This document shows, one piece after another, positions 35,447 to 64,000 of a stretch of DNA of 64,000 nt. Below the pieces are notes generated by a model that did no database searches, had not been told where the DNA came from, and saw only the letters and a list, made by a program, of their open reading frames with translations. The translations under genes were made by a program, and so were the position numbers. This DNA comes from Escherichia coli (GTDB lineage: Bacteria > Pseudomonadota > Gammaproteobacteria > Enterobacterales > Enterobacteriaceae). Position 1 is the stretch's first letter, and every line of letters starts with the position of its first letter. Location of the stretch: the NCBI RefSeq assembly GCF_044647545.1, contig NZ_CP172818.1. The stretch is one strand, 5' to 3'.

Positions 35447-35962
35447 ATGAAAAAAATTGCATGTCTTTCAGCACTGGCCGCAGTTCTGGCTTTCACCGCA
35501 GGTACTTCCGTAGCTGCGACTTCTACTGTAACTGGCGGTTACGCACAGAGCGACGCTCAGGGCCAAATGAACAAAATGGGCGGTTTCAACCTGAAATACC
35601 GCTATGAAGAAGACAACAGCCCGCTGGGTGTGATCGGTTCTTTCACTTACACCGAGAAAAGCCGTACTGCAAGCTCTGGTGACTACAACAAAAACCAGTA
35701 CTACGGCATCACTGCTGGTCCGGCTTACCGCATTAACGACTGGGCAAGCATCTACGGTGTAGTGGGTGTGGGTTATGGTAAATTCCAGACCACTGAATAC
35801 CCGACCTACAAACACGACACCAGCGACTACGGTTTCTCCTACGGTGCTGGTCTGCAGTTCAACCCGATGGAAAACGTTGCTCTGGACTTCTCTTACGAGC
35901 AGAGCCGTATTCGTAGCGTTGACGTAGGCACCTGGATTGCCGGTGTTGGTTACCGCTTCTAA
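35447..35962 (+). CDS. ompX: Outer membrane protein X
   Basis: 171 aa with signal peptide and C-terminal Phe. Confidence 0.95.
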   Translation: MKKIACLSALAAVLAFTAGTSVAATSTVTGGYAQSDAQGQMNKMGGFNLKYRYEEDNSPLGVIGSFTYTEKSRTASSGDYNKNQYYGITAGPAYRINDWASIYGVVGVGYGKFQTTEYPTYKHDTSDYGFSYGAGLQFNPMENVALDFSYEQSRIRSVDVGTWIAGVGYRF

Positions 35963-40959: not shown

Positions 40960-42552
40960 GTGTTAGTTTCCAGTAACGTCACCATGCAGTTCGGCAGTAA
41001 GCCGTTGTTTGAAAACATTTCCGTCAAGTTTGGCGGCGGCAACCGTTACGGCCTGATTGGCGCGAACGGTAGTGGTAAATCCACCTTTATGAAGATCCTC
41101 GGCGGCGACTTAGAGCCGACGCTGGGTAACGTTTCCCTCGATCCCAACGAGCGCATTGGTAAGCTGCGTCAGGATCAGTTTGCCTTTGAAGAGTTCACTG
41201 TGCTGGATACGGTGATCATGGGGCATAAAGAATTATGGGAAGTGAAGCAGGAGCGCGACCGCATCTATGCTTTGCCGGAAATGAGTGAGGAAGACGGCTA
41301 TAAAGTGGCCGATCTGGAAGTGAAATACGGCGAAATGGACGGTTACTCTGCGGAAGCTCGCGCCGGTGAACTGTTGCTTGGCGTGGGAATTCCAGTGGAA
41401 CAGCACTACGGCCCGATGAGTGAAGTTGCTCCTGGCTGGAAGCTGCGTGTGCTGCTGGCGCAGGCGCTGTTTGCTGATCCGGACATTCTCCTGCTCGACG
41501 AACCGACCAACAACCTCGACATCGACACCATTCGTTGGCTGGAACAGGTGCTGAACGAGCGTGACAGCACCATGATCATCATCTCGCACGACCGTCACTT
41601 CCTTAACATGGTTTGTACCCACATGGCGGATCTGGATTACGGCGAGCTGCGCGTTTATCCGGGCAACTACGATGAGTACATGACGGCGGCGACCCAGGCG
41701 CGTGAACGTCTGCTGGCTGATAACGCCAAGAAGAAGGCGCAGATTGCTGAGCTGCAATCTTTCGTTAGCCGCTTTAGCGCCAACGCCTCGAAATCTCGCC
41801 AGGCAACTTCGCGCGCGCGCCAGATTGATAAAATCAAACTGGAAGAGGTGAAAGCCTCCAGCCGTCAGAACCCGTTCATCCGTTTTGAACAGGATAAGAA
41901 ACTGTTCCGTAACGCGCTGGAAGTGGAAGGTCTGACCAAAGGGTTTGATAACGGTCCGCTGTTTAAAAATCTCAACCTGCTGCTGGAAGTCGGTGAAAAA
42001 CTGGCGGTACTGGGTACCAACGGCGTCGGTAAATCAACGCTGTTGAAAACGCTGGTGGGCGATCTGCAACCGGACAGCGGCACCGTAAAATGGTCTGAAA
42101 ACGCGCGCATTGGTTACTATGCTCAGGACCACGAATATGAGTTTGAAAATGATCTGACCGTGTTCGAATGGATGAGCCAGTGGAAGCAGGAAGGCGATGA
42201 CGAGCAGGCGGTACGCAGCATTCTCGGTCGTTTGCTGTTCAGCCAGGACGACATTAAAAAGCCAGCTAAAGTGCTTTCCGGTGGGGAAAAAGGGCGGATG
42301 CTGTTTGGTAAGTTAATGATGCAGAAGCCGAACATTCTGATCATGGACGAACCGACCAACCACCTGGATATGGAATCTATTGAGTCGCTGAACATGGCGC
42401 TGGAACTGTATCAGGGCACGCTGATCTTTGTTTCACACGACCGTGAGTTCGTAAGCTCCCTGGCGACCCGTATTCTGGAAATCACCCCGGAACGCGTGAT
42501 CGACTTTAGCGGTAATTACGAAGATTATCTGCGTAGTAAAGGGATCGAGTAA
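40960..42552 (+). CDS. ybiT: ABC-F family ATPase with two nucleotide-binding domains, no membrane domain
   Basis: 530 aa; Walker [10 protein letters not shown] and GTNGVGKST. Confidence 0.9.
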
Positions 42553-42637
42553 CTGTTGATCTCGTTTCCCAGATCCAGCAGCTGCTGAGGTTGTCATAAA
42601 ACAGGCCGAAGCTAAACGTCATTGCGGCGGGTGATGG

Positions 42638-43205
42638 CTAATGGAATGTGTTGTACAGCGGGTCAGTACTCACGGCGTTGTAGCCCATCGCGTCGAGGTT
42701 ACGCATCTCGTAACGTTTACCGTTGCGTTGCAGGTCGCCGGCTTTATCTCCGAGGCCATAAAAGCGTTCATCTTTACGACGGCTCTGATAGTGCGCCACA
42801 CCGTCACCGTGGGCATTCAGCAGATAAGCGCTGGTCGGTCGGTCATTCACTAACGGCAGCCATTTCGTCTTCGTTGTTACTATAGTGCCACTCCAGCCAC
42901 AGCGGCTGGTGAACGGTGGACCAGTGACTCGGTGGCGATAACCACGGCGTTGTTGTGCTGGTTCAGGTTCATGCGGGCAGGCCAGCCGCTGGACATTTTG
43001 CCGGCCGCGCCCTTCCCGATGGCACATCCTGCTGGAGCAATGCTCCAGGTGCGATCCAGCGCCAGCTCGCCTTTGCGTTTTAACAGCACGCGGAACAGAA
43101 TTCCAGCACGTACAGACGCAATACGCCCGCCATCGACCAGCAGTTCAACGTGGTGGGCAGACTGTTTGAGGTCCAGTTTTTCAGCGTTTCGACGTTGCAC
43201 ATCAC
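42638..43205 (-). pseudogene. Glycoside hydrolase family 31-like N-terminal fragment, frameshifted and 3'-truncated
   Basis: Two consecutive frames: ...HHVELLVDGGRIASVRAGILFRV...NQHNNAVVIATESL then ...RFYGLGDKAGDLQRNGKRYEMRNLDAMGYNAVSTDPLY-stop; same motif spacing as YicI ([23 protein letters not shown]); about 190 aa retained of an expected 700+. Confidence 0.55.
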
Positions 43206-43207
43206 TC

Positions 43208-44445
43208 TCAGGCGCGTTTTGCGCGACGTTCAGCAATAAAGGTGACCAGGAAGAAAGCGCCAATCAGGTCAAAGAAGCCCATGGCGATAAACAGGGCTTA
43301 AAGCCGATTTTGTCAGCAGTAACCCCGATAATCAGGGAGAAACAGGAAACTTGCTATCGACGCGGCAGAACCGCGCATGCCGTTACAGTGGCCATCTGAC
43401 CTTTGTCGAGGATTCCACTACTAATGCGCTAAGCATGCAGGAGATGATCTGGTCAACCGAAGCCGCCTATGGAAGATAAGGACGATGGCGATATGGGTTA
43501 TCCAGAAAGGCCATCACCGCCAGCGAAACCATCAGGAATGCGCCACTGACCGATCTATGCGCAATGGAGTTCACACTGACTCAGCCCAAACAGGCGGGTG
43601 TAAAGTTTGGTCAGATAGCCGCTGGCAATACTGCCAAGATCAGCGGCGAAGGAACGGCAACCAGGCGAAAGAGTGCGATCTGCTTCAGGTCGATGCCATA
43701 GGCATCTGGACAGGTATAGCGGAACCCAGAAACTCATCACCGCCCACGCCGGTTCTGCCATAAAGGCTGGGATAGTGATACCGTAAAAGCGTTTATTTTT
43801 GCCCACGGTTTTCAGTGCGGTCAGAAAGGGTAACTTGACCGGGGAGCTTCGTTATCCTGGCGGAGCAACCAGCTTGGCTTCGCTGAAGGTCAGGATGCTT
43901 ATCCGGGTTGCGATAAAACCCACCACAGCACCACCCACAGCATCGCCAGGATGCCAGTGGCATAAATGCGCCCTGCCAGCGAATGAAGCGTGGGCAAAAT
44001 AGATAATCGGTGGGGCCAGCATGGCACCGATGGAGTCTACGTCTGCCCAGCGGCGATCGGGCGTTGCGATTTTGGAAACCATTCACCTCATAGTTTTGGG
44101 GTTTGCCGGGGTGGCCGCGGCTTCCGCACCGCCCGATAAAGAAGCGCAACAGCGCCAGATGTACCCAGTTTCCCGCCCCCGCATGCATCAGACAGGCCAG
44201 CGCCCACAGCCCCTGTGCAGATCAGAAGCCCAGTTTGAGGCCAATGACGTCAATGAGCCACCGCATAACGGTTGAAATAGGGTATAGGCGAGTTGGAAAG
44301 CACCTACAATCCAGGAATATTGTTTTGTGCAATCCCCAGGCTGCTTTTCAACTCGGCGTACACCCAGCGAATTACGTGTGATGTAGTTGACAGTAACACC
44401 GAGCAAAAAAAGGACCAGCATCCACCAACGCAGATTTTTGAACAC
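43208..44445 (-). pseudogene. ExuT-like (anion:cation symporter family MFS) sugar-acid transporter, multiply frameshifted
   Basis: Fragments in at least four frames align in order along ExuT: N-terminus MFKNLRWWMLVLFLLGVTVNYITRN...KQYSWIVGAFQLAYTLFQP, then WRCCGWCCGGFYRNPDKHPDL, then KNKRFYGITIPAFMAEPAWAVMSFWVPLYL, then C-terminus IGVTADKIGFKP...FIAMGFFDLIGAFFLVTFIAERRAKRA. Confidence 0.7.
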
Positions 44446-44779
44446 CGGCGTGGTTTACTGGCAGTCATATCAATCGATACCCACTGATATGCACTCCACA
44501 GAATGGTATAGGGGGGCGGCAACGTCAGACGGAGTTGTCACACCACTTTTAACCTTTTGATAAATAAAGTCTTTATTGTCTGTTTTTCCATTGTTCTTGT
44601 ACTGGAAGTTGTTGTCACATTTTTACAGTAAGAGACACTAAAAGCGAAAAAGAAAGCGGGTTTTGTGCACGTTTTTCCATGCGGCCCATACATTACTGAA
44701 ATGGATTTAATGCCAGACAGAATGGGCTTTTTTTGCTCATGAAAATTCTGTCATTTCCGAATTAGAGGACATCAGAAAT

Positions 44780-45830
44780 CGGCAAAGAGCTTAAATTGCC
44801 GATATCGCCGCACGTACCGGATTATCGCCGATACGGTTTCGCGGGTGCTGCTGGCAAAGCGAATACCAGTGCACGCGCTCGCGAACAGGCGCTGGCCTGC
44901 GCGTGAGTTGGGCGCGATGGATGGCATGGCAGCAGGTCATGTTGCTGAATACAACTCATCATTTTGCGCCGCAACGCGCGTTTGACCAACGATCTGATAT
45001 CTTTTATTACCTGGTGTGATCCAGCATCAGCAAAGCGTTATCGCCCGCATGAAGTGCGGCTGCGTTACTGCGTGTTAAGGTAGTTCTACAGCTGATCCCT
45101 GGCGTGATCTGGCGGCATGAATGAAGCAGATACGCAGGCGGCGATCCTGCTGGGGATCGACGATCCGCACATCCATGATCTGGCCGCCGATCGCTAAGCC
45201 TTGCGCTGATCGACTGCTGGTGATGAACGAATGCGCCTCCCGACGATTGCGCCGGACCATCGGTTAATCGGCGTGTCTGCCGCCCGCTATCTGTTTGAAA
45301 TGGGTCACCGGGAGGTGATGAACGTTATGTGCCTGCGCTCGGCCACACTATGGAGCAGCGGTTTGCAGGGATCAAAGAATCATGGCGTCAGCATAATCTG
45401 GCCTTTCACCATGACCGTCATTTGCTGAATATCAGCAGTTTTCTCAGCGCTAAAGAAGCGGAAGAAGGTCGGAGCGCGGCCTGATGCCGCCAATGGCAAT
45501 ACGTTGCCGACGGCGTTTCTGGTCGGCGGGGATTTTTATGGCGGCGGGAACGGTAAATGCGCTACATCGTCGTGGTCTGCGCGTACCACAGGATGTCTCG
45601 GTGATGAGTATCGATGGTCTTCAATCTTGCGGCAATCGAGGATGTTCCCGACGGCTGTGACGTGCCACGCGATCAGCTAAGGGTTAAGTGGTGCAAATGT
45701 TGCAACAGCGGCTGATTCGCCGGATGTCTGCGGTGGGCTCGCTGCTGCTGCACGGACGATTAGCGGTGCGGACGCGCGGCGGTTGCCCAGGAAAAGGGAA
45801 CACCGCCGTGGAACGGGAAGGGCTGTACGA
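44780..45830 (+). pseudogene. LacI-family transcriptional regulator, multiply frameshifted
   Basis: N-terminal helix-turn-helix spread over three frames (IADIAARTGLSP / TVSRVL / GKANTSARAREQALACA); sugar-binding-domain fragments PDHRLIGVSAARYLFEMGHREV and ALHRRGLRVPQDVSVMSIDG; boundaries approximate. Confidence 0.65.
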
Positions 45831-45833
45831 CAA

Positions 45834-47102
45834 TCATTCCATTCCCAGCGCTCGCTTACCGTGAATGTTGAGGTCGGCAAGCGTAAAGCGTCCTTCCCAG
45901 TTTGTTTCATAGTCCTCGCGCGGGAAGTCGCCCGGCGATGCGCCTTTTTCCAGTGCGGCCTTCACCTTGTGCGCGTAGGCAAGATTTTTCTCGCACATCG
46001 GTGCCGCAGGAATGTACATCACGTTGCCCCAACCCTGTTGATTTTCAACGGGGGCAACGGAATGGATGACGTCGCAGTGCCACCAGACGGAGTCTCCGGC
46101 TTCGAGTTGTGGAATGCTGGTTAATGCCTCAATCAACAGTGGATGCCATTGCTCTGATACCGGCAACACTCTTCCGGGCGCTACGCCGCACAGTTCATCC
46201 TCCGGCACATCATCAAGCAGCGGACGTAACAGCACGTACGCCATGGCTTCAGGAATGGGCACGACGTGCAGCAGTCCCTGACCAGGCAGCATATCAGAGA
46301 GCGCTGTCCAGCCCTGGAATGTCCGAAACACGGAACATTTGGTGGTGTTGTCCACCGTGTACTCTTCAACTTCTGTACGATGTGCCGCATGCCAGGGATC
46401 ATATTGCGCCAGATTGCCATTAAAGACGTTGGCGAAAACGCGCTGATACGCTGGAAGCAGCCAGCGTTCCAGTGCCCCGGAGTCGGTATGCGCTCCGAGA
46501 CCTTTGGAGGCCGTTCCGGGCGGACGGCGGCGGATACGGTCAGGGTAGATGACGCTCACATCCGGGTTAAACCATTGCTTTCCATCACTTTCAAATGTCC
46601 ACAGACGATTGAGAAACGACTGCGCATTCGCCATTTCTTCACTCTGGCGGGCCTGCATTTGCGCCTGCGACCAGTAGATGGGGTAAATCTCGGGACGTGA
46701 AGCGCTGAGCGTCCCGAAGAAATTATCGCCGGGGCCTTTGTAGACCTCATCAAAGCGGTTGCGGTCCAGATAGTCCAGCATCGACTGATCCCAGCCTAGC
46801 GCTTGTTCGCGGGGGAAATGGCCTTTTATCACCGCACAACCGCGACGTTTAATCTGTTCGCGTTGCTCTGCAGTAACATGACCTGCTTTGATATCGGCAT
46901 AAGACAGCACCGGCCAGACTGCATCGCCCTGTGCTTTGAGTGCGTTGATTTCAGCCACTCGCGTGGCAATGTCATCGCTTAGCTGATTAAAGATCTGCTG
47001 GACGTCGCCAAGCTGCGCCCGCAGCGCGTGCTTCATCTGACGGATAGCTGCTTTGTGATCGGCAGGCAATGTGTTGCTGGTAAAAGTAGAAGCCATAACC
47101 AC
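45834..47102 (-). CDS. ybiU: DUF1479 family protein
   Basis: 422 aa intact ORF. Confidence 0.85.
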   Translation of the reverse strand: MVMASTFTSNTLPADHKAAIRQMKHALRAQLGDVQQIFNQLSDDIATRVAEINALKAQGDAVWPVLSYADIKAGHVTAEQREQIKRRGCAVIKGHFPREQALGWDQSMLDYLDRNRFDEVYKGPGDNFFGTLSASRPEIYPIYWSQAQMQARQSEEMANAQSFLNRLWTFESDGKQWFNPDVSVIYPDRIRRRPPGTASKGLGAHTDSGALERWLLPAYQRVFANVFNGNLAQYDPWHAAHRTEVEEYTVDNTTKCSVFRTFQGWTALSDMLPGQGLLHVVPIPEAMAYVLLRPLLDDVPEDELCGVAPGRVLPVSEQWHPLLIEALTSIPQLEAGDSVWWHCDVIHSVAPVENQQGWGNVMYIPAAPMCEKNLAYAHKVKAALEKGASPGDFPREDYETNWEGRFTLADLNIHGKRALGME

Positions 47103-47247
47103 CTCGCATTAACTTTCATTCGAAACTATGCTGATTTGCATGTGACAATATAAGTTATAAATAAGTTAATGCAAGTTTAATGATTTGATGTGATGTACAG
47201 GATGTAAAAAGAAGGGAAAACCGGAGCGCATGGCTCCGGTAGAGAGG

Positions 47248-48063
47248 TCAGCTGTTAAAAGGGGATCTGTTATCCAGCACAGCCTGAATCACGTTCAGCG
47301 CGCCTTCATGATTATTATCATCGGTAGCATAACGGGCGATTTGTTTAATGTTTTCCGCAGCATTGCCCATCGCAAAGGAATAACGCGCCATTTTCAGCAT
47401 CTCCGCATCGTTACCGCTGTCGCCAATCGCTACCACATTTTGCGGTGACAGATCCCAGCGTTTCAGTAACCGCGAAATACCGTTTGCTTTATGTAGACCG
47501 GGAATAATCAGGTCGATAAAGCCAAAACCACTGGTGACGGGTTTCATAATGCCATCCAGCGCTATGTGCAGTTTGTCGATCACTAACGGGATTTGTTCAT
47601 CCGGCAGGTTGAGCGAAAACTTGAACAGTACGTCGTCAATCTCCTGATAATCTTTTACAGGTTTCAGGCGATGGTAGTGTTTTGCCATCAGTGCGACGAA
47701 TGCTTCGGGGGCATTTTCGCTGACATATGCACTTTGCAGACCGCAAGCGACAAAATTGAGTTGCTTATCTTTTAGCAACTCGCCAATAACAATCCGCGAT
47801 TCATGTCGGGTCAGTTCGCCGTGGAACAACTGCTTGCCATGTTCGTAAACCAGTGCGCCGTTTTCCGCGACAAAAGAGATCTCATCCTTTAGCTCAGGAA
47901 AGAACGAAATAAGCTGGTAATACTGATTACCGCTGGCGACAACGAACTCAATGCCGCGCTTTTTCAGTTCCTGATATTGCGCCATAAAACGTGGTTGGTT
48001 GTACGTTTTGGCGTCGTTAAGAAAAGTACCGTCCATGTCTGTGACGATAACTTTTACGCTCAT
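47248..48063 (-). CDS. ybiV: HAD-superfamily (Cof-type) sugar phosphatase
   Basis: 271 aa; N-terminal DMDGT motif. Confidence 0.9.
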
Positions 48064-48208
48064 AGGTGTGCTCCTGGCTCGAAAATGAAACCGTAACAGT
48101 GTAATAACAATGTGACGCAGAGCACAAATTATATTTCGAATGAAAGCGAGGCTGAAATTGATGATGTGAATGATTTAGCCCGGCGACGACGACGCCGGGC
48201 TGAGGAGA

Positions 48209-50641
48209 TTACAGCATATGTTCAGTACGGGCGATGATATCGTCCTGAGCGTCTGGAGAGAGCGCGGTGAAGAAGGCGGAATAGCCCGCGACACGCACTA
48301 CCAGATCGCGGTACTGATCCGGATGTTTTTTCGCTTCCAGCAGCGTTTCGCGGGAAACGATGTTGTACTGAATATGCCAGCCTTTATGCACTTCAAAGAA
48401 GGTGCGTAGCAGGATCATCAGTTTCTGCTTGTCAGATTCGTTCTCCAGCGTTGCCGGATTCAGTTTCTGGTTGAGCAACACGCCGCCGAGAATCGCGGCC
48501 GTAGGCAGTTTACCCACCGAGCCAATGACCGCAGTAGGGCCAAGATGATCAGTACCGGAGGCCGGACTAGCTCCTTCTGCCAGCGGGGTATGCGCTTTAC
48601 GTCCGTCCGGCGTTGCCATCGTCTGCGCGCCAAAGGGTACGTTAGCGGAGATAGATGACGTACCCGCGTAATAATTGCCGCCAACCGGACCACGACCATA
48701 GCGCGGGTTATGGTACTGTTTTAGTTCGTCGATATAGGTCTGATAAGCGCGAGCCAGCAGCGTATCGACAGTATCATCGTCGTTGCCGTACTTAGGCGCA
48801 CCGTTAATCAGCCGCTGACGCAGCTGCTCGTGAGTCAGGCCGTCGAAGTCATCCGCCAGTGCGGCAGCCAGCTGTTGCTGACCAATCGCGCCCTGTTCAA
48901 ATACCAGTTTCTTCACTGCCGCCAGGCTGTTGCCGAGGTTAGCAATGCCGACCTGCAGGCCAGAAACCCAGTCATATTTCGCGCCGCCTTGCTTGATACT
49001 TTTCGCTCGCTCAATACAGTCATCCACCAGCGCCGAGCAGAGAATATCGTGTACGTTCTCTTCCAGCATGGTGTCGACGACATATTCGATTTCGATTGAT
49101 TTACGCGTGTAGTAACGGATTTGCGTATCCCATGCGTCCATTACTTCATCGAAGTTGTTGAAGTTACCCGCTGACAACGCTTTTTCTTGTGGCAGGAACA
49201 CTTTGCCGCTGGTGGCATCACGACCGCCTTCCAGCGCCGCCAGCATCACGCGGGCGAAGTTGATAAAGCTCATGCCGGTACAGCGATAGCCCCATTTGCC
49301 ACCGACGGCGGTTTCGATACAACCAATCGCTGCGTAGTCGTAAGCGTCCTGCGGTTCAATACCGAGTTTAATAAATTCCGGGATGACGATTTCATCGTTG
49401 TTGAACGCCGGCATCCCGAAACCACAGCGGATCACCTGAACACAGGCATCGAGGAAATCGTTACTCATACCCGCATGGTAACGCACGCTGAGGTTAGGCT
49501 GAGTCGAACGCAGGCGACCGCAGGATTCGAGGATCGCATAAGAGAGTGGATTTACCGCGTCCATCGGTTGACCATCAACCAGATTTTGCCCGCCAATGGT
49601 GACGTTCTGATACAGCGGACTTCCCGCAGAGGCTTTTGAGTGTGAGCCGGAGCGGATTTTGTTCACTTCCAGCAATTTCAACCAGCAGCTATGCAGCATC
49701 TCGATGGCGTGTTCGCGATCCAGTGTCTGGTTCAGTTCAACGTCACGGCGATAGTATGGATAGAGATACTGGTCCATACGACCAAAAGATACTGAGTGAC
49801 CGTTAGATTCGATCTGCAATATCAACTGGATGAAGTAACACAGTTGCAGCGCCTGCCAGAAAGTCTGCGGCGGTTGGTGGGCGATAAGATCGCAGTTTTC
49901 TGCCATCGCCAGCAGTTCATCGCGACGGCTTTCGCGGGTTTCGGTCGTGGCCATTTCACGCGCCAGGGCAGCGAAACGTTCAATGTGTTCACTGACTGCC
50001 ACCAGCACGATATCAATCGCTTTCAGGAATTGCTCGCCGTGCAGATCTTCCAGTACCGTCAGATTGATGCGCGAGCGACGTTCCGCCACTTTCTCACGCA
50101 GACCATCAAGCCCTTTTTCCAGCAGTAGCGGGAAATTCACCGCCAGGTGCGCATCGCCGGAGGTCATATTGCCCTCCGCTTTAATGATGCCGGTCGCCAG
50201 CAGACCTTTTTGCTCATCGGTAAACATGCCGTAGCAGCGATCCTGTACCGTCTGACCGCGCCACCACGGGCACACTTCATGCAGAACACGTTTGTTCTCC
50301 TCGCTCACCGCAAAACCAGCACCCGGACGATCTGCCAGATCATCAATCTCTTTTTCGATCCACGAGACGGTATATTCCGGGAAGATCGGCGCGGCGCGAA
50401 CCTCGCTTGCCTGGTTGCCGATGATCAACTCATCGTGCTTGATCCAGATGGTGCGATTCGCCAGGTGATGCGCCAGTGCCAGCGCGCGACGTACCGGGAT
50501 CGGCTTATCGAGATGTTGTTGATACATCTCGGTATAGTGCTGCGCGCGCTCGGTACAGACTGGTGGTTTCACAATATGCACCAGCGCATTTTTGTGCGCT
50601 TTAATGCGGTCGCTGAGCGTGTCCAGTTTCAGTGTGGTCAT
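48209..50641 (-). CDS. ybiW: Glycyl radical enzyme (pyruvate formate-lyase-like), substrate not established
   Basis: 810 aa; C-terminal glycyl-radical signature ...VVRVAGYSAFF. Confidence 0.9.
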   Translation of the reverse strand: MTTLKLDTLSDRIKAHKNALVHIVKPPVCTERAQHYTEMYQQHLDKPIPVRRALALAHHLANRTIWIKHDELIIGNQASEVRAAPIFPEYTVSWIEKEIDDLADRPGAGFAVSEENKRVLHEVCPWWRGQTVQDRCYGMFTDEQKGLLATGIIKAEGNMTSGDAHLAVNFPLLLEKGLDGLREKVAERRSRINLTVLEDLHGEQFLKAIDIVLVAVSEHIERFAALAREMATTETRESRRDELLAMAENCDLIAHQPPQTFWQALQLCYFIQLILQIESNGHSVSFGRMDQYLYPYYRRDVELNQTLDREHAIEMLHSCWLKLLEVNKIRSGSHSKASAGSPLYQNVTIGGQNLVDGQPMDAVNPLSYAILESCGRLRSTQPNLSVRYHAGMSNDFLDACVQVIRCGFGMPAFNNDEIVIPEFIKLGIEPQDAYDYAAIGCIETAVGGKWGYRCTGMSFINFARVMLAALEGGRDATSGKVFLPQEKALSAGNFNNFDEVMDAWDTQIRYYTRKSIEIEYVVDTMLEENVHDILCSALVDDCIERAKSIKQGGAKYDWVSGLQVGIANLGNSLAAVKKLVFEQGAIGQQQLAAALADDFDGLTHEQLRQRLINGAPKYGNDDDTVDTLLARAYQTYIDELKQYHNPRYGRGPVGGNYYAGTSSISANVPFGAQTMATPDGRKAHTPLAEGASPASGTDHLGPTAVIGSVGKLPTAAILGGVLLNQKLNPATLENESDKQKLMILLRTFFEVHKGWHIQYNIVSRETLLEAKKHPDQYRDLVVRVAGYSAFFTALSPDAQDDIIARTEHML

Positions 50642-50646
50642 GGTTG

Positions 50647-51573
50647 TTATCCTCGTAAGGTCGCGGTTAACCCTTTCTGGCAGGCGTACTGCTGGGCAAA
50701 GTCGAGCAGTTCTGGCGCATCAAGCGGTTTTTCCGGGGCGTCATAGGGCAGATTAAGTAAGTGATATTTGTTGATGCCCAGCGTGTGGTAGGGCAGAAAA
50801 TGAATTTCGCCAACGTGCAGCTCGTCGGCGGCAAAATCGGTAATGGCTTTTACAGAGGTTTCGTCGGCATTAAAGCCCTGAATCAGCGGTACGCGGATAA
50901 TGATTTTTTTGCCCGCTGAGGCGAGTTTTTTCAGGTTATCCAGCACTCTGGCGGCGTTACCGTCGGTCCACTGTTTAAACGGCGCGTCGGCAACGTGTTT
51001 TAAATCGGCAAGAAACAGATCGATATAGGGCAGAGAAGGGGCGATATATTTCCACGGCACATGCAGACAGGTTTCTACCGCAGTATGAATGCCAGCCTCG
51101 TGGCTGGCTTGCAGTAGCGCCATCGCCATTTCCGGCTGCATAAACGGTTCACCGCCAGAAAGCGTTAAGCCGCCGCCGCTGCGATCGTAAAACGGTTTAT
51201 CGCGCAGAACGGTCGCCATGATCTCCTCAACGCTTTTCACTTCACCACACACGGTTAACGCCTGTGTCGGGCAGCAGTCGGTTAGCGCCGTCAGATGCTC
51301 CGGGGTTAACTTTTCCCGATGAATAAGCAAACCATTCAACGCGCGCTCAATCACGTCCGGCGCGGCCTTAGCGCACAGCTCACAGCCTTCCAGGCACAGA
51401 CGTGGGTCATACAGCAGATCCTGCGTGCGGGCGCGGCTTTCCGGGTTCTGACACCAGCGGCAGCCCAGCGAACAGCCTTTAAGAAATACGACCGTGCGGA
51501 TACCGGGGCCATCATGGGTCGAGTAGCGCTGAATATTGAAAATCATAGTTGCCTCTCTGTTTCGTTCAAACAT
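50647..51573 (-). CDS. ybiY: Glycyl-radical-enzyme activating enzyme (radical SAM)
   Basis: ORF 50647..51573; radical-SAM CxxxCxxC motif (CSLGCRWC) plus additional Cys clusters; true start may be a downstream Met. Confidence 0.85.
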
Positions 51574-51676
51574 TAAAATACTTTCGAATGAAAGTTAGAT
51601 TGATGTGCGTCAACTGTTCAGAGAGTTTTCCCGTGATAGTCTACATTCAGACAAAAAGTACATTTTGAGGATGGTT

Positions 51677-52339
51677 ATGGAACTGTATCTGGATACTTCA
51701 GACGTTGTTGCGGTGAAGGCGCTGTCACGTATTTTTCCGCTGGCGGGTGTGACCACTAACCCAAGCATTATCGCCGCGGGTAAAAAACCGCTGGAGGTTG
51801 TGCTTCCGCAACTTCACGAGGCGATGGGCGGTCAGGGGCGTCTGTTTGCCCAGGTAATGGCTACCACTGCCGAAGGGATGGTGAATGACGCGCTTAAGCT
51901 GCGTTCTATTATTGCGGATATCGTGGTGAAAGTTCCGGTGACCGCCGAGGGGCTGGCAGCGATTAAGATGTTAAAAGCGGAAGGGATTCCGACGCTGGGA
52001 ACCGCGGTATATGGCGCAGCACAAGGGCTACTGTCGGCGCTGGCAGGTGCGGAATATGTTGCGCCTTACGTTAATCGTATTGATGCTCAGGGCGGTAGCG
52101 GTATTCAGACTGTGACCGACTTACACCAGTTATTGAAAATGCATGCGCCGCAGGCGAAAGTGTTAGCCGCGAGTTTCAAAACCCCGCGTCAGGCGCTGGA
52201 CTGCTTACTGGCAGGATGTGAATCAATTACTCTGCCACTGGATGTGGCACAACAGATGATTAGCTATCCGGCGGTTGATGCCGCTGTGGCGAAGTTTGAG
52301 CAGGACTGGCAGGGAGCGTTTGGCAGAACGTCGATTTAA
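51677..52339 (+). CDS. fsaA: Fructose-6-phosphate aldolase 1
   Basis: 220 aa from internal Met ([11 protein letters not shown]...). Confidence 0.9.
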
Positions 52340-52491
52340 CCGGACGTTCTGCATCCTCATCAATTGCTGATAACGTTGTGGAGTGCACCAAGCTTCCGCG
52401 CCTGAAATTCGCCCGAACTAGGCAGATAAGGTTACGCCGATTGGGTCTGAGAAAATTATCTGCCGCGACTTATCAGGCCTGGGGCTGGCAG

Positions 52492-53241
52492 TTACTGCCC
52501 GCACACCTCACACCCCGGATTACGCATCAGTTTCATTTCGCGAAACTGACAGGTCATCGCATCGTACATCACGATTTTTCCGCTGGCCGGTTTGCCATAA
52601 CCTGCCAGCAGTTTGATCGCTTCCATTGCCTGCAACGAACCAATTACGCCGATTAACGGTGCCATCACGCCTGCTTCTACGCAGGTTAACGCGTTCTCGC
52701 CAAACAAACGGCTAAGGCAGCGATAGCACGGTTCGCCGTCCTGATAAGTGAAGACCGTGATTTGCCCTTCCATACGAATTGCCGCGCCGGAAACCAGCGG
52801 CACCTTCGCGGCAAAACAGCCTGCGTTCAGTTGATTACGTACTGCAACGTTATCCGTACAGTCGAGCACCAGATCGTGTTTTGCAATCATCGCAGCAAGT
52901 TCAGCGTCATCAAGCAGTGCATTGACTGGCGTAATCGCGATATGTGGGTTGATCCGCGTCAGGGCGTCACGGGCGGATTTCACCTTCGGTTGCCCGACCG
53001 TGGCATCGCTGTGCAGCGTCTGGCGTTGCAGATTCGAGAGCGAAACCGTGTCGAAGTCGAGCAGCGTCAGGTTGCCGACACCGGCGCTTGCCAGATACTG
53101 CGAAGCTGCGCAGCCGAGTCCACCGAGGCCGACGATCAGCACACGAGAATCTTTTAGCGCCTCCTGACCGTCAAAATCAAAACCGCGCAGAATGATTTGC
53201 CGGTTGTAGCGCAGCATCTCCTGATCGCTGAGTTCCGCCAT
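52492..53241 (-). CDS. moeB: Molybdopterin-synthase adenylyltransferase
   Basis: 249 aa with GxGxxG dinucleotide fold and C-terminal CxxC pairs. Confidence 0.95.
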   Translation of the reverse strand: MAELSDQEMLRYNRQIILRGFDFDGQEALKDSRVLIVGLGGLGCAASQYLASAGVGNLTLLDFDTVSLSNLQRQTLHSDATVGQPKVKSARDALTRINPHIAITPVNALLDDAELAAMIAKHDLVLDCTDNVAVRNQLNAGCFAAKVPLVSGAAIRMEGQITVFTYQDGEPCYRCLSRLFGENALTCVEAGVMAPLIGVIGSLQAMEAIKLLAGYGKPASGKIVMYDAMTCQFREMKLMRNPGCEVCGQ

Positions 53242-54476
53242 TACAGGCCTCCGAACAACGCGTTAAACGGTTCTACTTCCACCCATTCGCCCACTTCCAC
53301 ATTGCCGCGATCGCGTTCCAGCACGATAAAGCAGTTGCCGAGGCTAAAGGAGCTAAATATATGTGAACCCTGATGTCCGGTGGTCGTCACTTCCAGTTCG
53401 CCATCGGCGTTGCGTTGCAGCACGCCGCGCTGGAAATCAAGGCGTCCTGGCGATTTCTTCAGAGGCGATGCCGTGCGCACACGCTGGCGCGCGGGCAGGC
53501 CGCTGGCGGTATTGCCGCTTAGTTTTGCCAGCAAAGGCTGTACCAGTTGATAGAAGGTCAGCGTTGCTGAAACCGGGTTGCCCGGCAGGCCGCAGAACCA
53601 GCTATTGCTGAGTTTACCGAACGCGAACGGTTTACCTGGTTTAATCGCCAGCTTCCAGAAGGCGATCTCCCCCAGCTCTTCAAGAATGGTTTTGGTGTAA
53701 TCCGCTTCACCCACTGAAACACCGCCGGAACTGATCACCACATCCGCCTGGCTGTCGGCTTCAATAAATGCGGCGCGCAGGGCATGGGGATCGTCGCGGA
53801 TAATCCCTAAGTTGATTACCTCGCATCCCAACTGTTCTAACATCAGGTGTACGGCGAGACGGTTGGTATCGTAGATTTGGCCGTCGCCCAGCGGCTGGCC
53901 TGGCAACTGGAGTTCATCACCGGTAGAAAACAGCGCTACACGCACTTTACGAATCACCGGAACTTCGGCAATCCCCAGTGAAGCAATTACTGGCAGCTCT
54001 GCGGTAGTCAGGCGAGTCCCCGCCGGGAAAACAACCGCACCTGCAGAGATATCTTCACCGCGACGGCGAATATTTTGCCCGCTACGCACTTCAGCAGTAA
54101 AACGCACGCCATTGTCCGTTTGTTCAGTCTGCTCCTGCATCACCACCGCTTCGCAGCCTTCCGGCACCGGCGCACCGGTCATAATACGAATGCAGGTACC
54201 CGCAGGCCATTCACCATGGTACGGCTGACCGGCAAAGGATTTACCGGCAACGGGCAGCGGTTGCCCGGAGGCAATATCGGCTAAACGCACCGCGTAGCCG
54301 TCCATAGCGGAGTTATCAAACCCCGGGACATCCAGTGGCGAAACGACATCGCTCGCCAGAATACGACCAAAACACTGAACCAGTGGCAGCGTTTCCTGGG
54401 CGGTCAGTGGGGTAACGCGAGAAAGCATCTCATTAAGCGCGGTGTCGAGCGACATCAATCCGGTGGTAAATTCCAT
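53241..54476 (-). CDS. moeA: Molybdopterin molybdenumtransferase
   Basis: 411 aa ORF; stop/start overlap with moeB. Confidence 0.95.
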
Positions 54477-54679
54477 GAAAACACTCCTGCGGAGGCAAAA
54501 TCGAATTTGCCTATTATGTCAGAAAAACGCCACAGACTGTATGCCACCTCGGGCGTAGCGTTGGCTCCTGCCTTTACATGCCATATCCATCTTTCTATAT
54601 TCAAAAATTGAATGAGTAATTCATAAAAATTCTGATATTTATAGCAAAAGTGGCGAGCCACCCTTAATGGACGAATACT

Positions 54680-55645
54680 ATGGGCAAAGCAGTCATTGCA
54701 ATTCATGGTGGCGCAGGTGCAATTAGCCGCGCGCAGATGAGTCTGCAACAGGAATTACGCTACATCGAGGCGCTGTCTGCCATTGTTGAAACCGGGCAGA
54801 AAATGCTGGAAGCGGGCGAAAGTGCGCTGAATGTGGTGACGGAAGCGGTGCGTCTGCTGGAAGAGTGTCCACTGTTTAACGCCGGAATTGGCGCTGTCTT
54901 TACGCGTGATGAAACCCATGAACTGGACGCCTGTGTGATGGATGGTAACACCCTGAAAGCCGGTGCGGTGGCGGGCGTTAGTCATCTGCGTAATCCGGTT
55001 CTTGCCGCCCGACTGGTGATGGAGCAAAGCCCGCATGTGATGATGATTGGCGAAGGGGCAGAAAATTTTGCGTTTGCTCATGGCATGGAGCGCGTCTCAC
55101 CGGAGATTTTCTCCACGCCTTTGCGTTATGAACAACTACTGGCAGCGCGCGAGGAAGGGGCAACAGTCCTCGACCATAGCGGTGCGCCACTGGATGAAAA
55201 ACAGAAAATGGGCACCGTGGGGGCCGTGGCGTTGGATTTAGACGGCAATCTGGCGGCAGCCACGTCCACGGGCGGAATGACCAATAAATTACCCGGACGA
55301 GTTGGCGATAGTCCCTTAGTGGGTGCCGGATGCTACGCCAATAACGCCAGTGTGGCAGTTTCTTGTACCGGCACGGGCGAAGTCTTCATCCGCGCGCTGG
55401 CGGCATATGACATCGCCGCGTTAATGGATTACGGCGGATTAAGTCTCGCGGAAGCCTGCGAGCGGGTAGTAATGGAAAAACTCCCTGCGCTTGGCGGTAG
55501 CGGTGGCTTAATCGCTATCGACCATGAAGGGAATGTCGCGCTACCGTTTAACACCGAAGGAATGTATCGCGCCTGGGGCTACGCAGGCGATACGCCAACC
55601 ACCGGTATCTACCGTGAAAAAGGGGACACCGTTGCCACACAGTGA
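54680..55645 (+). CDS. iaaA: Isoaspartyl dipeptidase / L-asparaginase (Ntn-hydrolase)
   Basis: 321 aa ORF. Confidence 0.9.
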
Positions 55646-57503
55646 TGAACTTGATGCCGGTGATGTGCTGGCGGTTGAAAATCTGAATATTGCCTTTATG
55701 CAGGACCAGCAGAAAATAGCTGCGGTCCGCAATCTCTCTTTTAGCCTGCAACGCGGTGAGACGCTGGCAATTGTTGGCGAATCCGGCTCCGGTAAGTCAG
55801 TGACTGCGCTGGCATTGATGCGTCTGTTGGAACAGGCGGGCGGTTTAGTACAGTGCGATAAAATGCTGTTGCGGCGGCGCAGTCGCGAAGTGATTGAACT
55901 TAGCGAGCAGAGCGCTGCACAAATGCGCCATGTGCGCGGTGCGGATATGGCGATGATATTTCAGGAACCGATGACATCGCTGAACCCGGTATTTACTGTG
56001 GGTGAACAGATTGCCGAATCAATTCGTCTGCATCAGAACGCCAGTCGTGAAGAAGCGATGGTCGAGGCGAAGCGGATGCTGGATCAGGTACGCATTCCGG
56101 AGGCACAAACCATTCTTTCACGTTATCCGCATCAACTCTCTGGCGGGATGCGCCAGCGAGTGATGATTGCGATGGCGCTGTCATGCCGCCCGGCGGTGCT
56201 GATTGCCGATGAGCCAACCACCGCGCTGGATGTCACTATTCAGGCGCAGATCCTGCAATTAATCAAAGTATTGCAAAAAGAGATGTCGATGGGCGTTATC
56301 TTTATCACTCACGATATGGGCGTGGTGGCAGAGATTGCCGATCGGGTACTGGTGATGTATCAGGGCGAGGCGGTGGAAACGGGTAGCGTCGAACAGATTT
56401 TTCATGCACCGCAACATCCTTACACCCGTGCGCTGTTAGCTGCTGTTCCGCAACTTGGTGCGATGAAAGGGTTAGATTATCCCCGACGTTTCCCATTGAT
56501 ATCGCTTGAACATCCAGCGAAACAGGAACCACCCATCGAGCAGAAAACGGTGGTGGATGGCGAACCTGTTTTACGGGTGCGTAATCTGGTCACCCGTTTC
56601 CCTTTGCGCAGCGGTTTGTTGAATCGCGTAACGCGGGAAGTGCATGCCGTTGAGAAAGTCAGTTTTGATCTCTGGCCTGGCGAAACGCTATCGCTGGTGG
56701 GCGAGTCTGGCAGCGGTAAATCCACTACCGGGCGGGCGTTGCTGCGCCTGGTCGAATCGCAGGGCGGCGAAATTATCTTTAACGGTCAGCGAATCGATAC
56801 CTTGTCATCCGGTAAACTTCAGGCATTGCGCCGCGATATTCAGTTTATTTTTCAGGACCCTTACGCTTCGCTGGACCCACGTCAGACCATCGGTGATTCG
56901 ATTATCGAACCGCTGCGCGTACACGGTTTATTGCCAGGTAAAGAAGCGGCTGCACGCGTTGCGTGGTTGCTGGAGCGCGTGGGCCTGTTACCGGAACATG
57001 CCTGGCGTTACCCGCATGAGTTTTCCGGCGGTCAGCGCCAGCGCATCTGCATTGCTCGCGCGTTGGCATTGAATCCAAAAGTGATCATTGCCGACGAAGC
57101 CGTCTCGGCGCTGGATGTATCTATTCGCGGGCAGATTATCAACTTGTTGCTCGATCTCCAGCGTGATTTCGGCATTGCGTATCTGTTTATCTCCCACGAT
57201 ATGGCCGTGGTAGAGCGGATTAGTCATCGTGTGGCGGTGATGTATCTCGGACAAATTGTTGAAATTGGTCCACGGCGCGCGGTCTTTGAAAATCCGCAGC
57301 ATCCTTATACGCGTAAATTACTGGCGGCAGTTCCGGTCGCTGAACCGTCCCGACAACGACCGCAGCGTGTACTGCTGTCGGACGATCTTCCCAGCAATAT
57401 TCATCTGCGTGGTGAAGAGGTTGTAGCCGTCTCGTTGCAATGCGTCGGGCCGGGGCATTACGTCGCACAACCACAATCAGAATACGCATTCATGCGTAGA
57501 TAA
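55632..57503 (+). CDS. gsiA: Glutathione import ATP-binding protein (two fused nucleotide-binding domains)
   Basis: 623 aa from TTG at 55632 ([11 protein letters not shown]...); Walker A GESGSGKS twice; overlaps the iaaA 3' end by 14 nt. Confidence 0.85.
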
Positions 57504-57522
57504 CATTCAGGCGGAGAATAAA

Positions 57523-59061
57523 ATGGCAAGAGCTGTACACCGTAGTGGGTTAGTGGCGCTGGGCATTGCGACAGCGTTGATGGCATCTTGTGCATTCGCT
57601 GCCAAAGATGTGGTGGTGGCGGTAGGATCGAACTTCACCACGCTCGATCCATATGACGCGAATGACACGTTATCTCAGGCCGTAGCGAAATCGTTTTACC
57701 AGGGGCTGTTCGGTCTCGATAAAGAGATGAAACTGAAAAACGTGCTGGCGGAGAGTTATACCGTTTCCGATGACGGCCTTACTTACACCGTGAAACTGCG
57801 GGAAGGAATTAAATTCCAGGATGGAACCGACTTCAACGCAGCGGCGGTAAAAGCGAATCTGGACCGGGCCAGCGATCCGGCGAATCATCTTAAACGCTAC
57901 AACCTGTATAAGAATATTGCCAAAACGGAAGCGATCGATCCGACAACGGTAAAGATTACCCTCAAACAGCCGTTCTCAGCGTTTATTAATATTCTTGCCC
58001 ATCCGGCGACCGCGATGATTTCACCGGCAGCGCTGGAAAAATATGGCAAGGAGATTGGTTTTCATCCGGTGGGAACCGGGCCGTATGAACTGGATACCTG
58101 GAATCAGACCGATTTTGTGAAGGTGAAAAAATTCGCGGGTTACTGGCAGCCAGGATTGCCCAAACTGGACAGCATAACCTGGCGTCCGGTGGCGGATAAC
58201 AACACCCGCGCGGCCATGCTGCAAACCGGTGAAGCGCAGTTTGCTTTCCCCATTCCCTACGAGCAGGCCGCACTGCTGGAGAAAAACAAAAATATCGAGT
58301 TGATGGCCAGTCCGTCAATTATGCAGCGTTATATCAGTATGAACGTGACGCAAAAGCCGTTCGATAACCCGAAGGTCCGTGAGGCGCTGAATTACGCCAT
58401 TAACCGCCCGGCGCTGGTGAAAGTGGCCTTCGCGGGTTATGCAACGCCAGCTACTGGTGTGGTACCGCCGAGTATCGCCTACGCGCAAAGTTATAAACCG
58501 TGGCCTTACGATCCGGCGAAAGCGCGCGAATTACTGAAAGAGGCGGGATATCCCAACGGTTTCAGTACCACGCTGTGGTCGTCACATAACCACAGCACTG
58601 CGCAGAAAGTGCTGCAATTTACCCAGCAGCAGTTAGCGCAGGTCGGGATTAAAGCCCAGGTGACTGCGATGGATGCCGGACAGCGGGCGGCAGAAGTTGA
58701 AGGTAAAGGGCAAAAAGAGAGCGGCGTGCGGATGTTCTACACTGGCTGGTCGGCTTCAACCGGCGAAGCAGACTGGGCTCTATCGCCGCTGTTTGCCTCG
58801 CAGAACTGGCCACCGACGCTGTTTAATACCGCGTTTTACAGCAATAAACAGGTGGATGACTTCCTGGCTCAGGCATTGAAAACTAATGATCCGGCGGAAA
58901 AGACCCGTTTATATAAGGCGGCGCAGGATATCATCTGGCAAGAGTCGCCGTGGATCCCGCTGGTGGTAGAAAAACTGGTGTCGGCACACAGTAAAAACCT
59001 GACCGGTTTTTGGATCATGCCAGACACCGGCTTCAGCTTTGAAGACGCGGATTTGCAATAA
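57523..59061 (+). CDS. gsiB: Glutathione-binding periplasmic protein
   Basis: 512 aa with signal peptide. Confidence 0.95.
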
Positions 59062-59078
59062 GCAACGCAGGGAGTGGA

Positions 59079-59999
59079 ATGCTTAATTACGTTATCAAAC
59101 GCTTGCTGGGGTTGATTCCGACGCTGTTTATCGTCTCGGTGCTGGTGTTTTTATTTGTCCATATGCTGCCCGGCGATCCGGCGCGATTGATTGCCGGGCC
59201 CGAAGCTGATGCGCAGGTTATAGAACTGGTGCGTCAGCAGCTGGGGTTGGATCAGCCGCTGTATCACCAGTTCTGGCACTATATCAGCAATGCTGTGCAG
59301 GGGGATTTTGGCCTGGCGATGGTGTCGCGTCGTCCGGTTGGCGATGAGATTGCCAGCCGCTTTATGCCAACGCTGTGGCTGACCATAACCAGTATGGTCT
59401 GGGCGGTGATATTTGGTATGGCGGCGGGAATTATCGCCGCCGTCTGGCGTAATCGTTGGCCGGATCGATTGAGTATGACCATTGCGGTGTCGGGGATCTC
59501 GTTTCCGGCATTTGCTCTGGGGATGCTTTTAATTCAGGTATTCTCCGTTGAACTGGGCTGGCTGCCTACCGTGGGAGCAGACAGTTGGCAGCACTACATT
59601 TTACCCACCCTGACGCTCGGCGCGGCAGTGGCAGCCGTGATGGCGCGCTTTACCCGCGCGTCGTTTGTCGACGTTTTAAGCGAAGATTATATGCGTACCG
59701 CGAGGGCGAAAGGGGTGAGCGAAACCTGGGTTGTCCTCAAGCACGGGCTACGCAACGCGATGATCCCGGTAGTGACCATGATGGGCTTACAGTTTGGCTT
59801 TTTGCTCGGTGGTTCCATCGTGGTGGAGAAAGTTTTCAACTGGCCCGGACTTGGACGCTTACTCGTTGACTCCGTAGAAATGCGCGATTACCCGGTGATT
59901 CAGGCGGAAATTCTGCTTTTCTCGCTGGAATTTATTCTTATCAACTTAGTGGTGGATGTGCTTTACGCCGCCATTAACCCGGCTATCAGGTACAAGTAA
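59079..59999 (+). CDS. gsiC: Glutathione ABC transporter permease
   Basis: 306 aa ORF. Confidence 0.95.
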
Positions 60000-60001
60000 G
60001 G

Positions 60002-60913
60002 ATGCGACTATTTAACTGGCGACGTCAGGCGGTGTTAAACGCCATGCCACTGGTCAAACCTGACCAGGTACGTACACCGTGGCATGAATTCTGGCGACGA
60101 TTTCGCCGTCAGCATATGGCGATGACCGCCGCATTGTTCGTTATTTTATTGATTGTGGTGGCCATTTTTGCACGCTGGATTGCTCCCTATGACGCCGAAA
60201 ATTATTTTGATTATGACAATCTGAATAACGGACCTTCTTTGCAGCACTGGTTTGGCGTCGATTCACTGGGGCGTGACATTTTCAGCCGTGTCCTGGTTGG
60301 TGCGCAAATCTCGCTGGCGGCGGGCGTGTTTGCCGTGTTTATCGGTGCGGCGATCGGGACGTTGCTGGGCTTGCTGGCTGGATATTATGAAGGCTGGTGG
60401 GATCGGCTGATCATGCGCATTTGCGATGTGCTGTTTGCCTTCCCGGGTATTTTACTGGCGATCGCTGTTGTTGCGGTGTTGGGAAGCGGCATTGCTAACG
60501 TGATTATCGCAGTCGCCATTTTTTCCATCCCCGCGTTTGCCCGACTGGTGCGCGGCAACACGCTGGTGTTGAAACAGCAAACCTTTATTGAGTCAGCACG
60601 CAGTATTGGTGCCAGCGATATGACCATTTTATTGCGTCATATCCTGCCTGGGACCGTCTCTTCTATCGTGGTGTTTTTCACCATGCGCATTGGTACCTCG
60701 ATTATCTCTGCCGCCAGCCTGTCATTTCTCGGCCTCGGTGCGCAGCCGCCGACACCAGAGTGGGGAGCAATGCTCAATGAGGCACGAGCGGATATGGTTA
60801 TCGCGCCGCATGTCGCTGTTTTTCCGGCCCTGGCTATTTTTCTGACCGTACTGGCGTTCAATTTGTTGGGCGATGGTTTACGCGATGCGCTGGATCCGAA
60901 AATTAAAGGATAG
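60002..60913 (+). CDS. gsiD: Glutathione ABC transporter permease
   Basis: 303 aa ORF. Confidence 0.95.
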
Positions 60914-61089
60914 TTACGTTTGAATATTGCTTGAAAGGGTAATCACCTCACAGGAAATTATTGCCCTAAGCAAGTGTTGTAACTTTCTGCTGATTTTGTA
61001 GAATCGGGTAATTTGGTTAAAAAGCCGCAGCAAGGGACTATTTTGCAGCGGCACAGCGTTCAGACAGTTATTTTGTTAAATGTATTAAC

Positions 61090-63438: not shown

Positions 63439-63445
63439 TTTACGT

Positions 63446-64000
63446 ATGTCCAGAATCAATAAGTTCGTACTTACAGTCAGTCTGCTGATTTTTATCATGA
63501 TTTCAGCAGTTGCCTGCGGGATCTACACTCAAATGGTAAAGGAACGGGTGTATGGCCTGAAACAGTCCGTTATTGATACTGCTTTTGCGGTGGCAAATAT
63601 TGCTGAATATCGGCGTAGTGTGGCAATTGATCTGATCAACACGCTAAATCCTACGGAGGAACAGCTGTTGGTTGGCTTACGCACAGCTTACGCCGACTCG
63701 CTTTCACCCTCTTATTTGTACGATGTCGGTCCTTATCTGATTTCCAGTGACGAATGTATTCAGGTAAAGGAGTTCGAGAAAAATTATTGTGCAGATATTA
63801 TGCAGGTTGTGAAGTATCGACATGTCAAAAATACAGGGTTTATCTCTTTTGATGGTAAAACCTTCGTCTATTACCTCTATCCGGTAACTCACAATCGTAG
63901 TCTGATATTTTTGCTTGGTCTGGAACGTTTTTCTTTACTGTCAAAATCGCTGGCGATGGATAGCGAGAACCTGATGTTCTCCCTGTTTAAGAACGGTAAA
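63446..64000 (+). CDS. dgcI: Diguanylate cyclase DgcI, N-terminal part (3' end lies outside the window)
   Basis: ATG at 63446, open frame to window end ([23 protein letters not shown]...); not in the ORF track because no stop is reached. Confidence 0.8.

Follow-up and report, generated by a model that had tools for sequence, protein, structure and literature searches.

What does a perfect palindrome do in a control region whose flanking genes survive only as remnants? A 64,000-nucleotide stretch of an Escherichia coli genome (contig NZ_CP172818.1; the whole of this stretch is called the window below) contains, at 44563-44577, the sequence AATAAAGTCTTTATT, an inverted repeat of 15 bp that can be written AATAAAG-T-CTTTATT: two 7-bp arms flank one central T and, outside the G-T-C centre, the arms are pure A/T. 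A first-pass annotation, made from the sequence alone, had singled out this element as a possible fossil operator or promoter of a decayed gene module, while allowing that a short AT-rich palindrome can also arise by chance. The palindrome is indeed perfect, and it occurs in a single copy in the window; its surroundings are AT-rich, as described, with a G+C content of 40.4% across positions 44446-44779 (38.5% in the lowest 200-bp segment) against 51.9% window-wide. Is it an operator, a piece of a promoter or leader, a site for an architectural protein, or an accident of AT-rich DNA?

The accessory island and its decay

Positions 42500-46000 match a three-gene accessory island that sits between ybiT and ybiU and has three genes: the minus strand encodes a GH31 hydrolase and an MFS transporter, the plus strand a LacI-family regulator. 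Of 5426 complete E. coli genomes, 576-577 (about 11%) have the island intact, in at least two allele types, of which FDAARGOS_497 (L001) and Ecol_545 (L002) serve as references here; GMF054 represents a third, more divergent type. At the same place K-12 has no island, only a 240-bp spacer. Profile matches identify the hydrolase as GH31 alpha-glucosidase/alpha-xylosidase-like, under the equivalog cut-offs, and place the transporter in the D-galactonate-transporter (anion:cation symporter) subfamily; the regulator hits the LacI-family profiles RbsR, CytR (second best), and PurR, and these matches begin at its N-terminal DNA-binding domain. A search of the literature for the island or its protein accessions found nothing.

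One genome per species was taken for the comparison, which gave 80 loci from about 25 enterobacterial genera, including Kluyvera, Citrobacter, Enterobacter, Klebsiella, Raoultella, Salmonella diarizonae, Kosakonia, Cedecea, and Buttiauxella. The hydrolase-transporter/regulator layout is common to all 80 loci, except for a few truncated or rearranged contigs, and the spacers measured in the orthologues span 255-312 bp. The interval had been annotated as the control region between divergent transporter and regulator pseudogenes: the layout holds in the intact orthologues, but the left edge has to be moved, since about 43 nt of former transporter coding sequence had been included. In the window, both start codons that flank the spacer, at 44486-44488 (minus strand) and 44778-44780 (plus strand), have changed from ATG to ATC, and the end of the regulator remnant overlaps the 3' end of ybiU. 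The ribosome-binding sites of both flanking genes are conserved among the orthologues. Table 1 lists the elements of the locus.

Table 1. Remnant genes and spacer elements of the island, in window coordinates.
Feature	Position	Strand	Sequence	Remarks
GH31 hydrolase, N-terminal remnant	42554-43192	-		Start codon destroyed; edges approximate
MFS (anion:cation symporter type) transporter remnant	43207-44488	-		Start lost; 15 in-frame stops; ~29 small indels; edges approximate
Intergenic control region remnant, transporter (-) to regulator (+)	44489-44777			292-294 bp in intact E. coli alleles
Transporter ribosome-binding site	44493-44499	-	GTGGAGT	Conserved; adjoins the destroyed start (44486-44488)
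Block IV	44532-44544		GAGTTGTCACACC	Minus strand reads GGTGTGACAACTC; conservation 0.73
IHF-like core	44550-44562	-	TATCAAAAGGTTA	Perfect match to WATCAA-N4-TTR; abuts the palindrome
Palindrome	44563-44577		AATAAAGTCTTTATT	
Block III	44599-44613		GTA(C)TGGAAGTTGTT	Conservation 0.81; private 1-bp insertion in the window
Candidate -10	44625-44630	-	TACTGT	TANNNT at a fixed offset, 38 nt from O2, in 80/80 orthologues
O2	44665-44680		GTGCACGTTTTTCCAT	Consensus RTGCAAGnTTTYTCAT; second candidate operator; unchanged in the window
O1	44739-44754		ATGAAAATTCTGTCAT	Consensus 16-bp palindrome ATGAAAATTTTTTCAT; candidate autoregulatory operator; unchanged in the window
LacI-family regulator remnant	44778-45864	+		ATG->ATC start; 13 in-frame stops; ~18 small indels

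How did the island come to this state? Across the flanks (1-42548 and 45841-64000) the window differs from FDAARGOS_497 by one substitution and about 8 gap bases, apart from a patch at 52395-52460; from 42554 to about 45840 (3.3 kb), the two are separated by about 145 substitutions and 85 small indel events, as counted from local alignments (a global alignment of the island misplaced a large deletion). On this comparison gradual vertical decay of the island is excluded, because the flanks would have diverged too. Of the 68 sites that tell the two intact E. coli alleles apart, 62 are of the FDAARGOS_497 type in the window; thus, this copy is the FDAARGOS_497 allele plus private changes, not an old divergent lineage. 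The decayed allele is absent from the 5426 complete E. coli genomes, and one open reading frame of the decayed region is present once in a public protein collection, which means that the sequence has been deposited but is a singleton.

The large deletion removes 1892 bp (junction 42549-42554, equivalent to 19899-21790 of L083): it takes away the end of the ybiT coding sequence, the spacer between ybiT and the hydrolase gene, and 1.7 kb from the 3' part of the GH31 gene, and what are now the last ybiT codons are joined to the middle of the hydrolase gene. A search for terminators that this 1.9-kb deletion might have removed found none. The new end of ybiT (GIE-stop, 530 aa) equals that of the K-12 YbiT protein, compared with GIDG-stop and 531 aa in the intact island allele; the C-terminus of ybiU is altered in frame, reading GME-stop versus GIDS-stop, and resembles the K-12 GMDV-stop. 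Among the smaller changes, transitions are about as frequent as transversions, C/T exchanges on the plus strand number 60 versus 15 A/G exchanges, and only 17 of the 85 indels are of homopolymer type. Deletions of 1, 2, 3, 4, and 5 bp stand at 27:17:2:6:1, so that 3-bp deletions are under-represented. All three start codons are hit; the chance of this, estimated from the event density, is about 0.7%. Elsewhere in the window, the sole divergent spot is the patch at 52395-52460, in the REP-containing spacer that separates fsa from moeB; it has 31 differences from FDAARGOS_497, most of them deletions.

This pattern suggests either a local sequence-quality artefact, such as a noisy long-read bridge in a hybrid assembly, or a deliberate or simulated inactivation. 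An 8% deletion-biased error together with a second patch at a repeat would fit the former; the hits on start codons and the shortage of 3-bp deletions would fit the latter. A real recent mutational burst confined to one locus is very unlikely, even if the changes cover exactly the three island genes and their spacer while some 60 kb around them differ by one substitution; were it real, it would imply targeted hypermutation or inactivation of an accessory island in which the palindrome, O1, and O2 happen to be spared. The word "fossil" is doubtful as well, since natural pseudogenes of great age do not show this pattern. What look like pseudogenes here may thus be no relics of evolution, a caveat that affects any reading of the locus as gene decay, and in this neighbourhood the decay anomaly is more unusual than the palindrome.

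The palindrome in intact loci

How unusual is the palindrome in its own right? Perfect inverted repeats with arms of 7 or more and a loop of 0-3 occur 21 times in the window, and a first-order Markov model of the 334-bp region produces at least one palindrome of this kind in 9.3% of trials, or in 2.9% when the loop is limited to 1; an exact-pattern shuffle, with 0 expected, covers this one sequence only and not palindromes in general. With an expectation of 3-9% and 21 comparable repeats in the window, the early caution about chance was well placed: the palindrome is real but statistically only weakly unusual. As a hairpin, it folds at -1.7 kcal/mol (z = -1.5), and 18 of 200 shuffles are equally good; it lacks the stable G+C-rich stem of an intrinsic terminator, stable hairpin or cruciform, and a search for terminator-like sites found none.

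Within E. coli, the palindrome is constant. It is identical in the L001, L002, and GMF054 alleles, and the 71 bp around it are at least 90% identical in all 577 island-bearing E. coli genomes. This identity says little because the whole spacer is about 90% identical (88-90% between the window and the intact E. coli alleles). In the mutated window copy, a 49-bp stretch around the palindrome is free of private changes; so clean a stretch has a chance of about 3% at any one place, and about two are expected in 3.3 kb.

What happens outside this narrow circle? In Escherichia sp. MOD1-EC7003, in which the genes are intact (97-99% protein identity), the palindrome reads AATAAAGTCTTTGTT, one arm being broken by a mismatch. 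In the 76 further intact loci, all outside Escherichia, no version with up to four mismatches was found at the equivalent place. Around the aligned centre, only the three Escherichia sequences (3.75%) show dyad symmetry over 6 bp or more, as compared with 6% at random control centres in the same spacers, and column conservation is 0.60 across the palindrome, against a spacer mean of 0.65. Comparison with the spacers of intact orthologous loci was the check that the first-pass annotation had itself proposed, and its fossil operator does not survive it: outside Escherichia, the palindrome is lost in sequence and in symmetry. Across loci, O2 is anywhere between 137 and 194 nt from the transporter ATG, so the segment that carries the palindrome tolerates indels; the stretch from block IV to block III is 33-58 bp long in the orthologues, with a median A+T content of 70%. 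Judged from these alignments, the composition of this stretch is kept and its sequence is not.

Conserved elements and alternative roles for the palindrome

The alignments that establish the non-conservation of the palindrome also establish a pattern of conserved elements and fixed spacings in the same spacer. O1 (conservation 0.92; 19.4 bits) ends exactly 25 nt before the regulator ATG in 80/80 loci, in all of which its positions T2, G3, C14, and A15 are invariant. O2 (conservation 0.84) shares the TG-N10-CA frame with O1, and the distance from the start of O2 to that of O1 is 77 nt in 66 loci and 78 nt in the other 14; the window, at 74 bp, is unlike every intact locus. In 75 of the 82 loci examined, a matrix made from O1 and O2 scores nothing but this pair at 10 bits or above, a figure that is partly circular since the matrix was built from the same sites; it is also specific against flanking sequence. 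Its strongest off-target match, ATGAAAAAAATTGCAT at 35447-35462 (20.4 bits), starts about 5 nt before the ompX start (a position obtained by coordinate transfer from FDAARGOS_497) and is very probably due to chance.

Are these the sites of the LacI-family regulator? Among LacI-family motifs, 1251 of 1303 are even palindromes of 16-22 nt, with 4% odd ones of 17-21 nt; a central CG is found in 1173 of 1303 regulators and a different or degenerate centre in 78 (49 plus 29); more than three quarters of local regulators are autoregulated; and sites mostly lie about 140 to 30 nt upstream of the start codon of the regulated gene (PMC4052901). O1 and O2 are even palindromes within the 16-22 nt range, conserved in orthologues and adjoining a LacI-family regulator gene. 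Neither has the central CG: the central positions of O1 are T/T or T/C, and the centre of O2 is variable. O1 and O2 are probable operators of the regulator because they match the traits of that survey on all counts except the CG centre. In 51 of the 80 loci, O2 can also be read as a CRP-like TGTGC-N6-TCTCA.

Measured by the same yardstick, the palindrome is a poor operator. It has an odd length of 15 bp, below even the 17-21 nt of the odd-length minority, a G-T-C centre in place of CG, and no phylogenetic footprint. Its perfect dyad symmetry is a point in its favour, as is its position: the centre lies 84 nt upstream of the transporter ATG in L001 (82 nt in the window), within the range of LacI-family sites, and 209 nt upstream of the regulator ATG. 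However, far better conserved LacI-type palindromes are present in the same spacer, and these likely operators are 100-180 bases away. Could another dimeric factor, such as Fur or an FNR/CRP-type protein, be the reader? Taking GATAATGATAATCATTATC as the 19-bp Fur consensus, 13 of 19 positions match at 44559-44577, but the window contains 49 matches of at least 13/19, which makes this one background noise, and it is unconserved in the orthologues. The FNR/CRP-type dyad is TTGAT-N4-ATCAA, and the TTGAT that adjoins the palindrome is an FNR-type half-site; a perfect dyad is found there only in Kluyvera genomosp. 3, 23 of 81 sequences come within two mismatches, and Escherichia reaches only 6/10 (TTGAT-AAAT-AAAGT). 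A specific operator at the palindrome, fossil or otherwise, whether for the module's own regulator or for one of these proteins, is thus barely credible, having already been largely refuted by the orthologue comparison.

The FNR-type boxes of other genera deserve a remark of their own. In Kluyvera genomosp. 3 (L003), the perfect box, TTGATATTTATCAA, occupies the place of the Escherichia palindrome, about -215 from the regulator, and boxes that score 8-9/10 are present in Lelliottia and several Enterobacter species; anaerobic control of the operon is possible in Kluyvera genomosp. 3, Lelliottia, and Enterobacter.

Another thought is that the palindrome belongs to the promoter or 5' leader of the transporter-hydrolase operon. 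The minus-strand TANNNT hexamer that keeps a fixed offset in every orthologue is, by inference only, a candidate -10 of the operon promoter. If it is, transcription would start near 44618 and give a 5' leader of about 125-130 nt, in which the palindrome, at about 40-55 nt (coordinate estimates), would be transcribed as a weak A/U hairpin. In a promoter variant of this idea, the centre of the palindrome, AAGACT on the minus strand, would serve as a weak -35 for a -10 element TAAAAG (44552-44557, minus strand). An A-rich, -10-like run just upstream of block IV, seen by eye in the alignment of most orthologues, and the conserved AT-rich composition of the stretch also speak for a role of this kind. 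Against it, TANNNT is without a recognisable -35, consensus sigma-70 promoters with 16-18 bp spacing number 0 in the intact allele, and no sigma-70 promoter position was found to be kept across the orthologues. The window has one promoter-like match (1.3 expected), GTGACA-17-AACAAT from 44618 to 44590 on the minus strand, whose -35 arises from window-private mutations. As for the leader, the hairpin is marginal and its sequence unconserved, RNAalifold predicted no pairs in 29 transporter-leader sequences, and an Rfam search of the window and the intact spacer returned sub-threshold snoRNA and speF noise only. Taken together, a place for the palindrome in the promoter or leader is quite improbable.

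Blocks III and IV, which bound the AT-rich stretch, have the motif GGA(A)GTTGT in common; block III of the Enterobacter group also includes TGTGACA, which is TGTCACA of block IV in inverse orientation. A local hairpin that involves block IV has some changes in its arms in Kluyvera and Citrobacter, where a variable left arm pairs with the block (for example, CAACTC-N6-GAGTTG or ACTCA-N5-TGAGT), and is deleted in the Enterobacter group. CRP sites were considered by eye at block IV and O2 and rejected: although both have good half-sites, block IV lies at about -48 from the ATG and O2 at about -51.5 from the putative start, positions that do not suit the geometry of activation.

There remains the DNA next to the palindrome. 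IHF recognises WATCAR-N4-TTR, and some of its sites bear an A-tract in the other half (bioRxiv 10.1101/382655). The perfect IHF-like core at 44550-44562 (minus strand) has the palindrome directly 5' of it as A/T-rich DNA (AATAAAGACTTTATT on that strand); the palindrome could, then, supply the A/T-rich half of a site at which a nucleoid protein has an architectural role: IHF would sit on the core, the adjoining A/T tract would clamp the bent DNA, and the complex would give the control region its shape, the dyad symmetry of the palindrome being irrelevant. The TTGAT of the core is the best-conserved motif of the AT-rich stretch (its G is kept in 73 of 80 loci), a T-tract about 9 nt from it is fairly conserved, and the core has at most one mismatch in 45 of 81 sequences, being perfect in 14 (Escherichia, Kluyvera, a Pseudocitrobacter, Salmonella diarizonae, Cedecea, and Dryocola) and one mismatch away in 31. 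In the other 36, however, at least two positions differ, and in many genera TTGAT is instead part of TTGAT-N4-ATC, a half box of the FNR/CRP type. The core consensus is also short: the window has eight perfect matches, at least one is expected by chance in 3.6% of such regions, and this one was noticed after the fact. We regard an architectural site as unlikely, with IHF as its best candidate and H-NS, whose motif the AT-rich stretch may resemble, as an alternative. The palindrome could be a high-affinity architectural site specific to Escherichia, or, where it abuts TTGAT, it could contribute to a site that differs between genera.

A control region and its relatives

If the palindrome is not read by the regulator, how might the region work? 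The interval is what is left of a divergent control region that belonged to an accessory sugar-utilisation module, with the hydrolase and transporter expressed leftwards and the regulator rightwards. Its selected elements would be O1, O2, the two ribosome-binding sites, and the two conserved blocks. The regulator is expected to bind O1 and O2 and, as long as no sugar inducer releases it, to keep both its own gene and the transporter operon repressed, and the AT-rich stretch may be kept for its composition, as promoter, leader or bendable DNA, and not for the palindrome. We consider it probable that the palindrome is incidental, an Escherichia-specific feature in an AT-rich, length-variable stretch between conserved blocks, and that the operators of the regulator are O1 and O2 instead. 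A counterpoint is that the mutated window copy and three E. coli allele types all have it in perfect form. In itself the palindrome is of little consequence, being best read as noise in AT-rich DNA; the comparison around it yields a map that can be tested, covering the control region of a so far uncharacterised GH31/MFS/LacI sugar module of many Enterobacteriaceae, with two candidate operators at rigid spacing, an IHF-like core, and two conserved blocks.

How does this map compare with known systems? The local repressor regions of the LacI family (Ravcheev et al., 2014; PMC4052901) are close relatives: here too, the regulator gene diverges from its presumed target, the transporter/hydrolase operon; two conserved, even palindromes of 16 bp with a TG-N10-CA frame keep their spacing among orthologues; and the position of O1, shortly before the start codon of the regulator gene itself, is in line with autoregulation. 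The resemblance has its limits. The A/T-rich centres of O1 and O2 (AATT, AGTT, and similar) put them in a minority class, and in nearly all loci O2, at 137-194 nt from the transporter start, falls outside the range of -140 to -30; the 15-bp palindrome is out of keeping with the family.

The H' site of phage lambda, an IHF site, offers another comparison. Like H', the spacer studied here is regulatory and has a perfect core, with the A/T-tract palindrome where H' has its A-tract. In contrast to H', the candidate site here is a match to the short consensus, its core is degenerate in nearly half of the orthologues, and its tract is AATAAAG/CTTTATT and not a pure run of 4-6 A. The palindrome also invites comparison with the chance AT-rich inverted repeats of bacterial intergenic DNA. 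It departs from these in adjoining a moderately conserved TTGAT and in being unchanged across the sampled E. coli alleles. In other respects it is like them: its arms are short (7 bp) and almost pure A/T, its folding energy is negligible, its frequency is that expected from composition, and its conservation is confined to close relatives.
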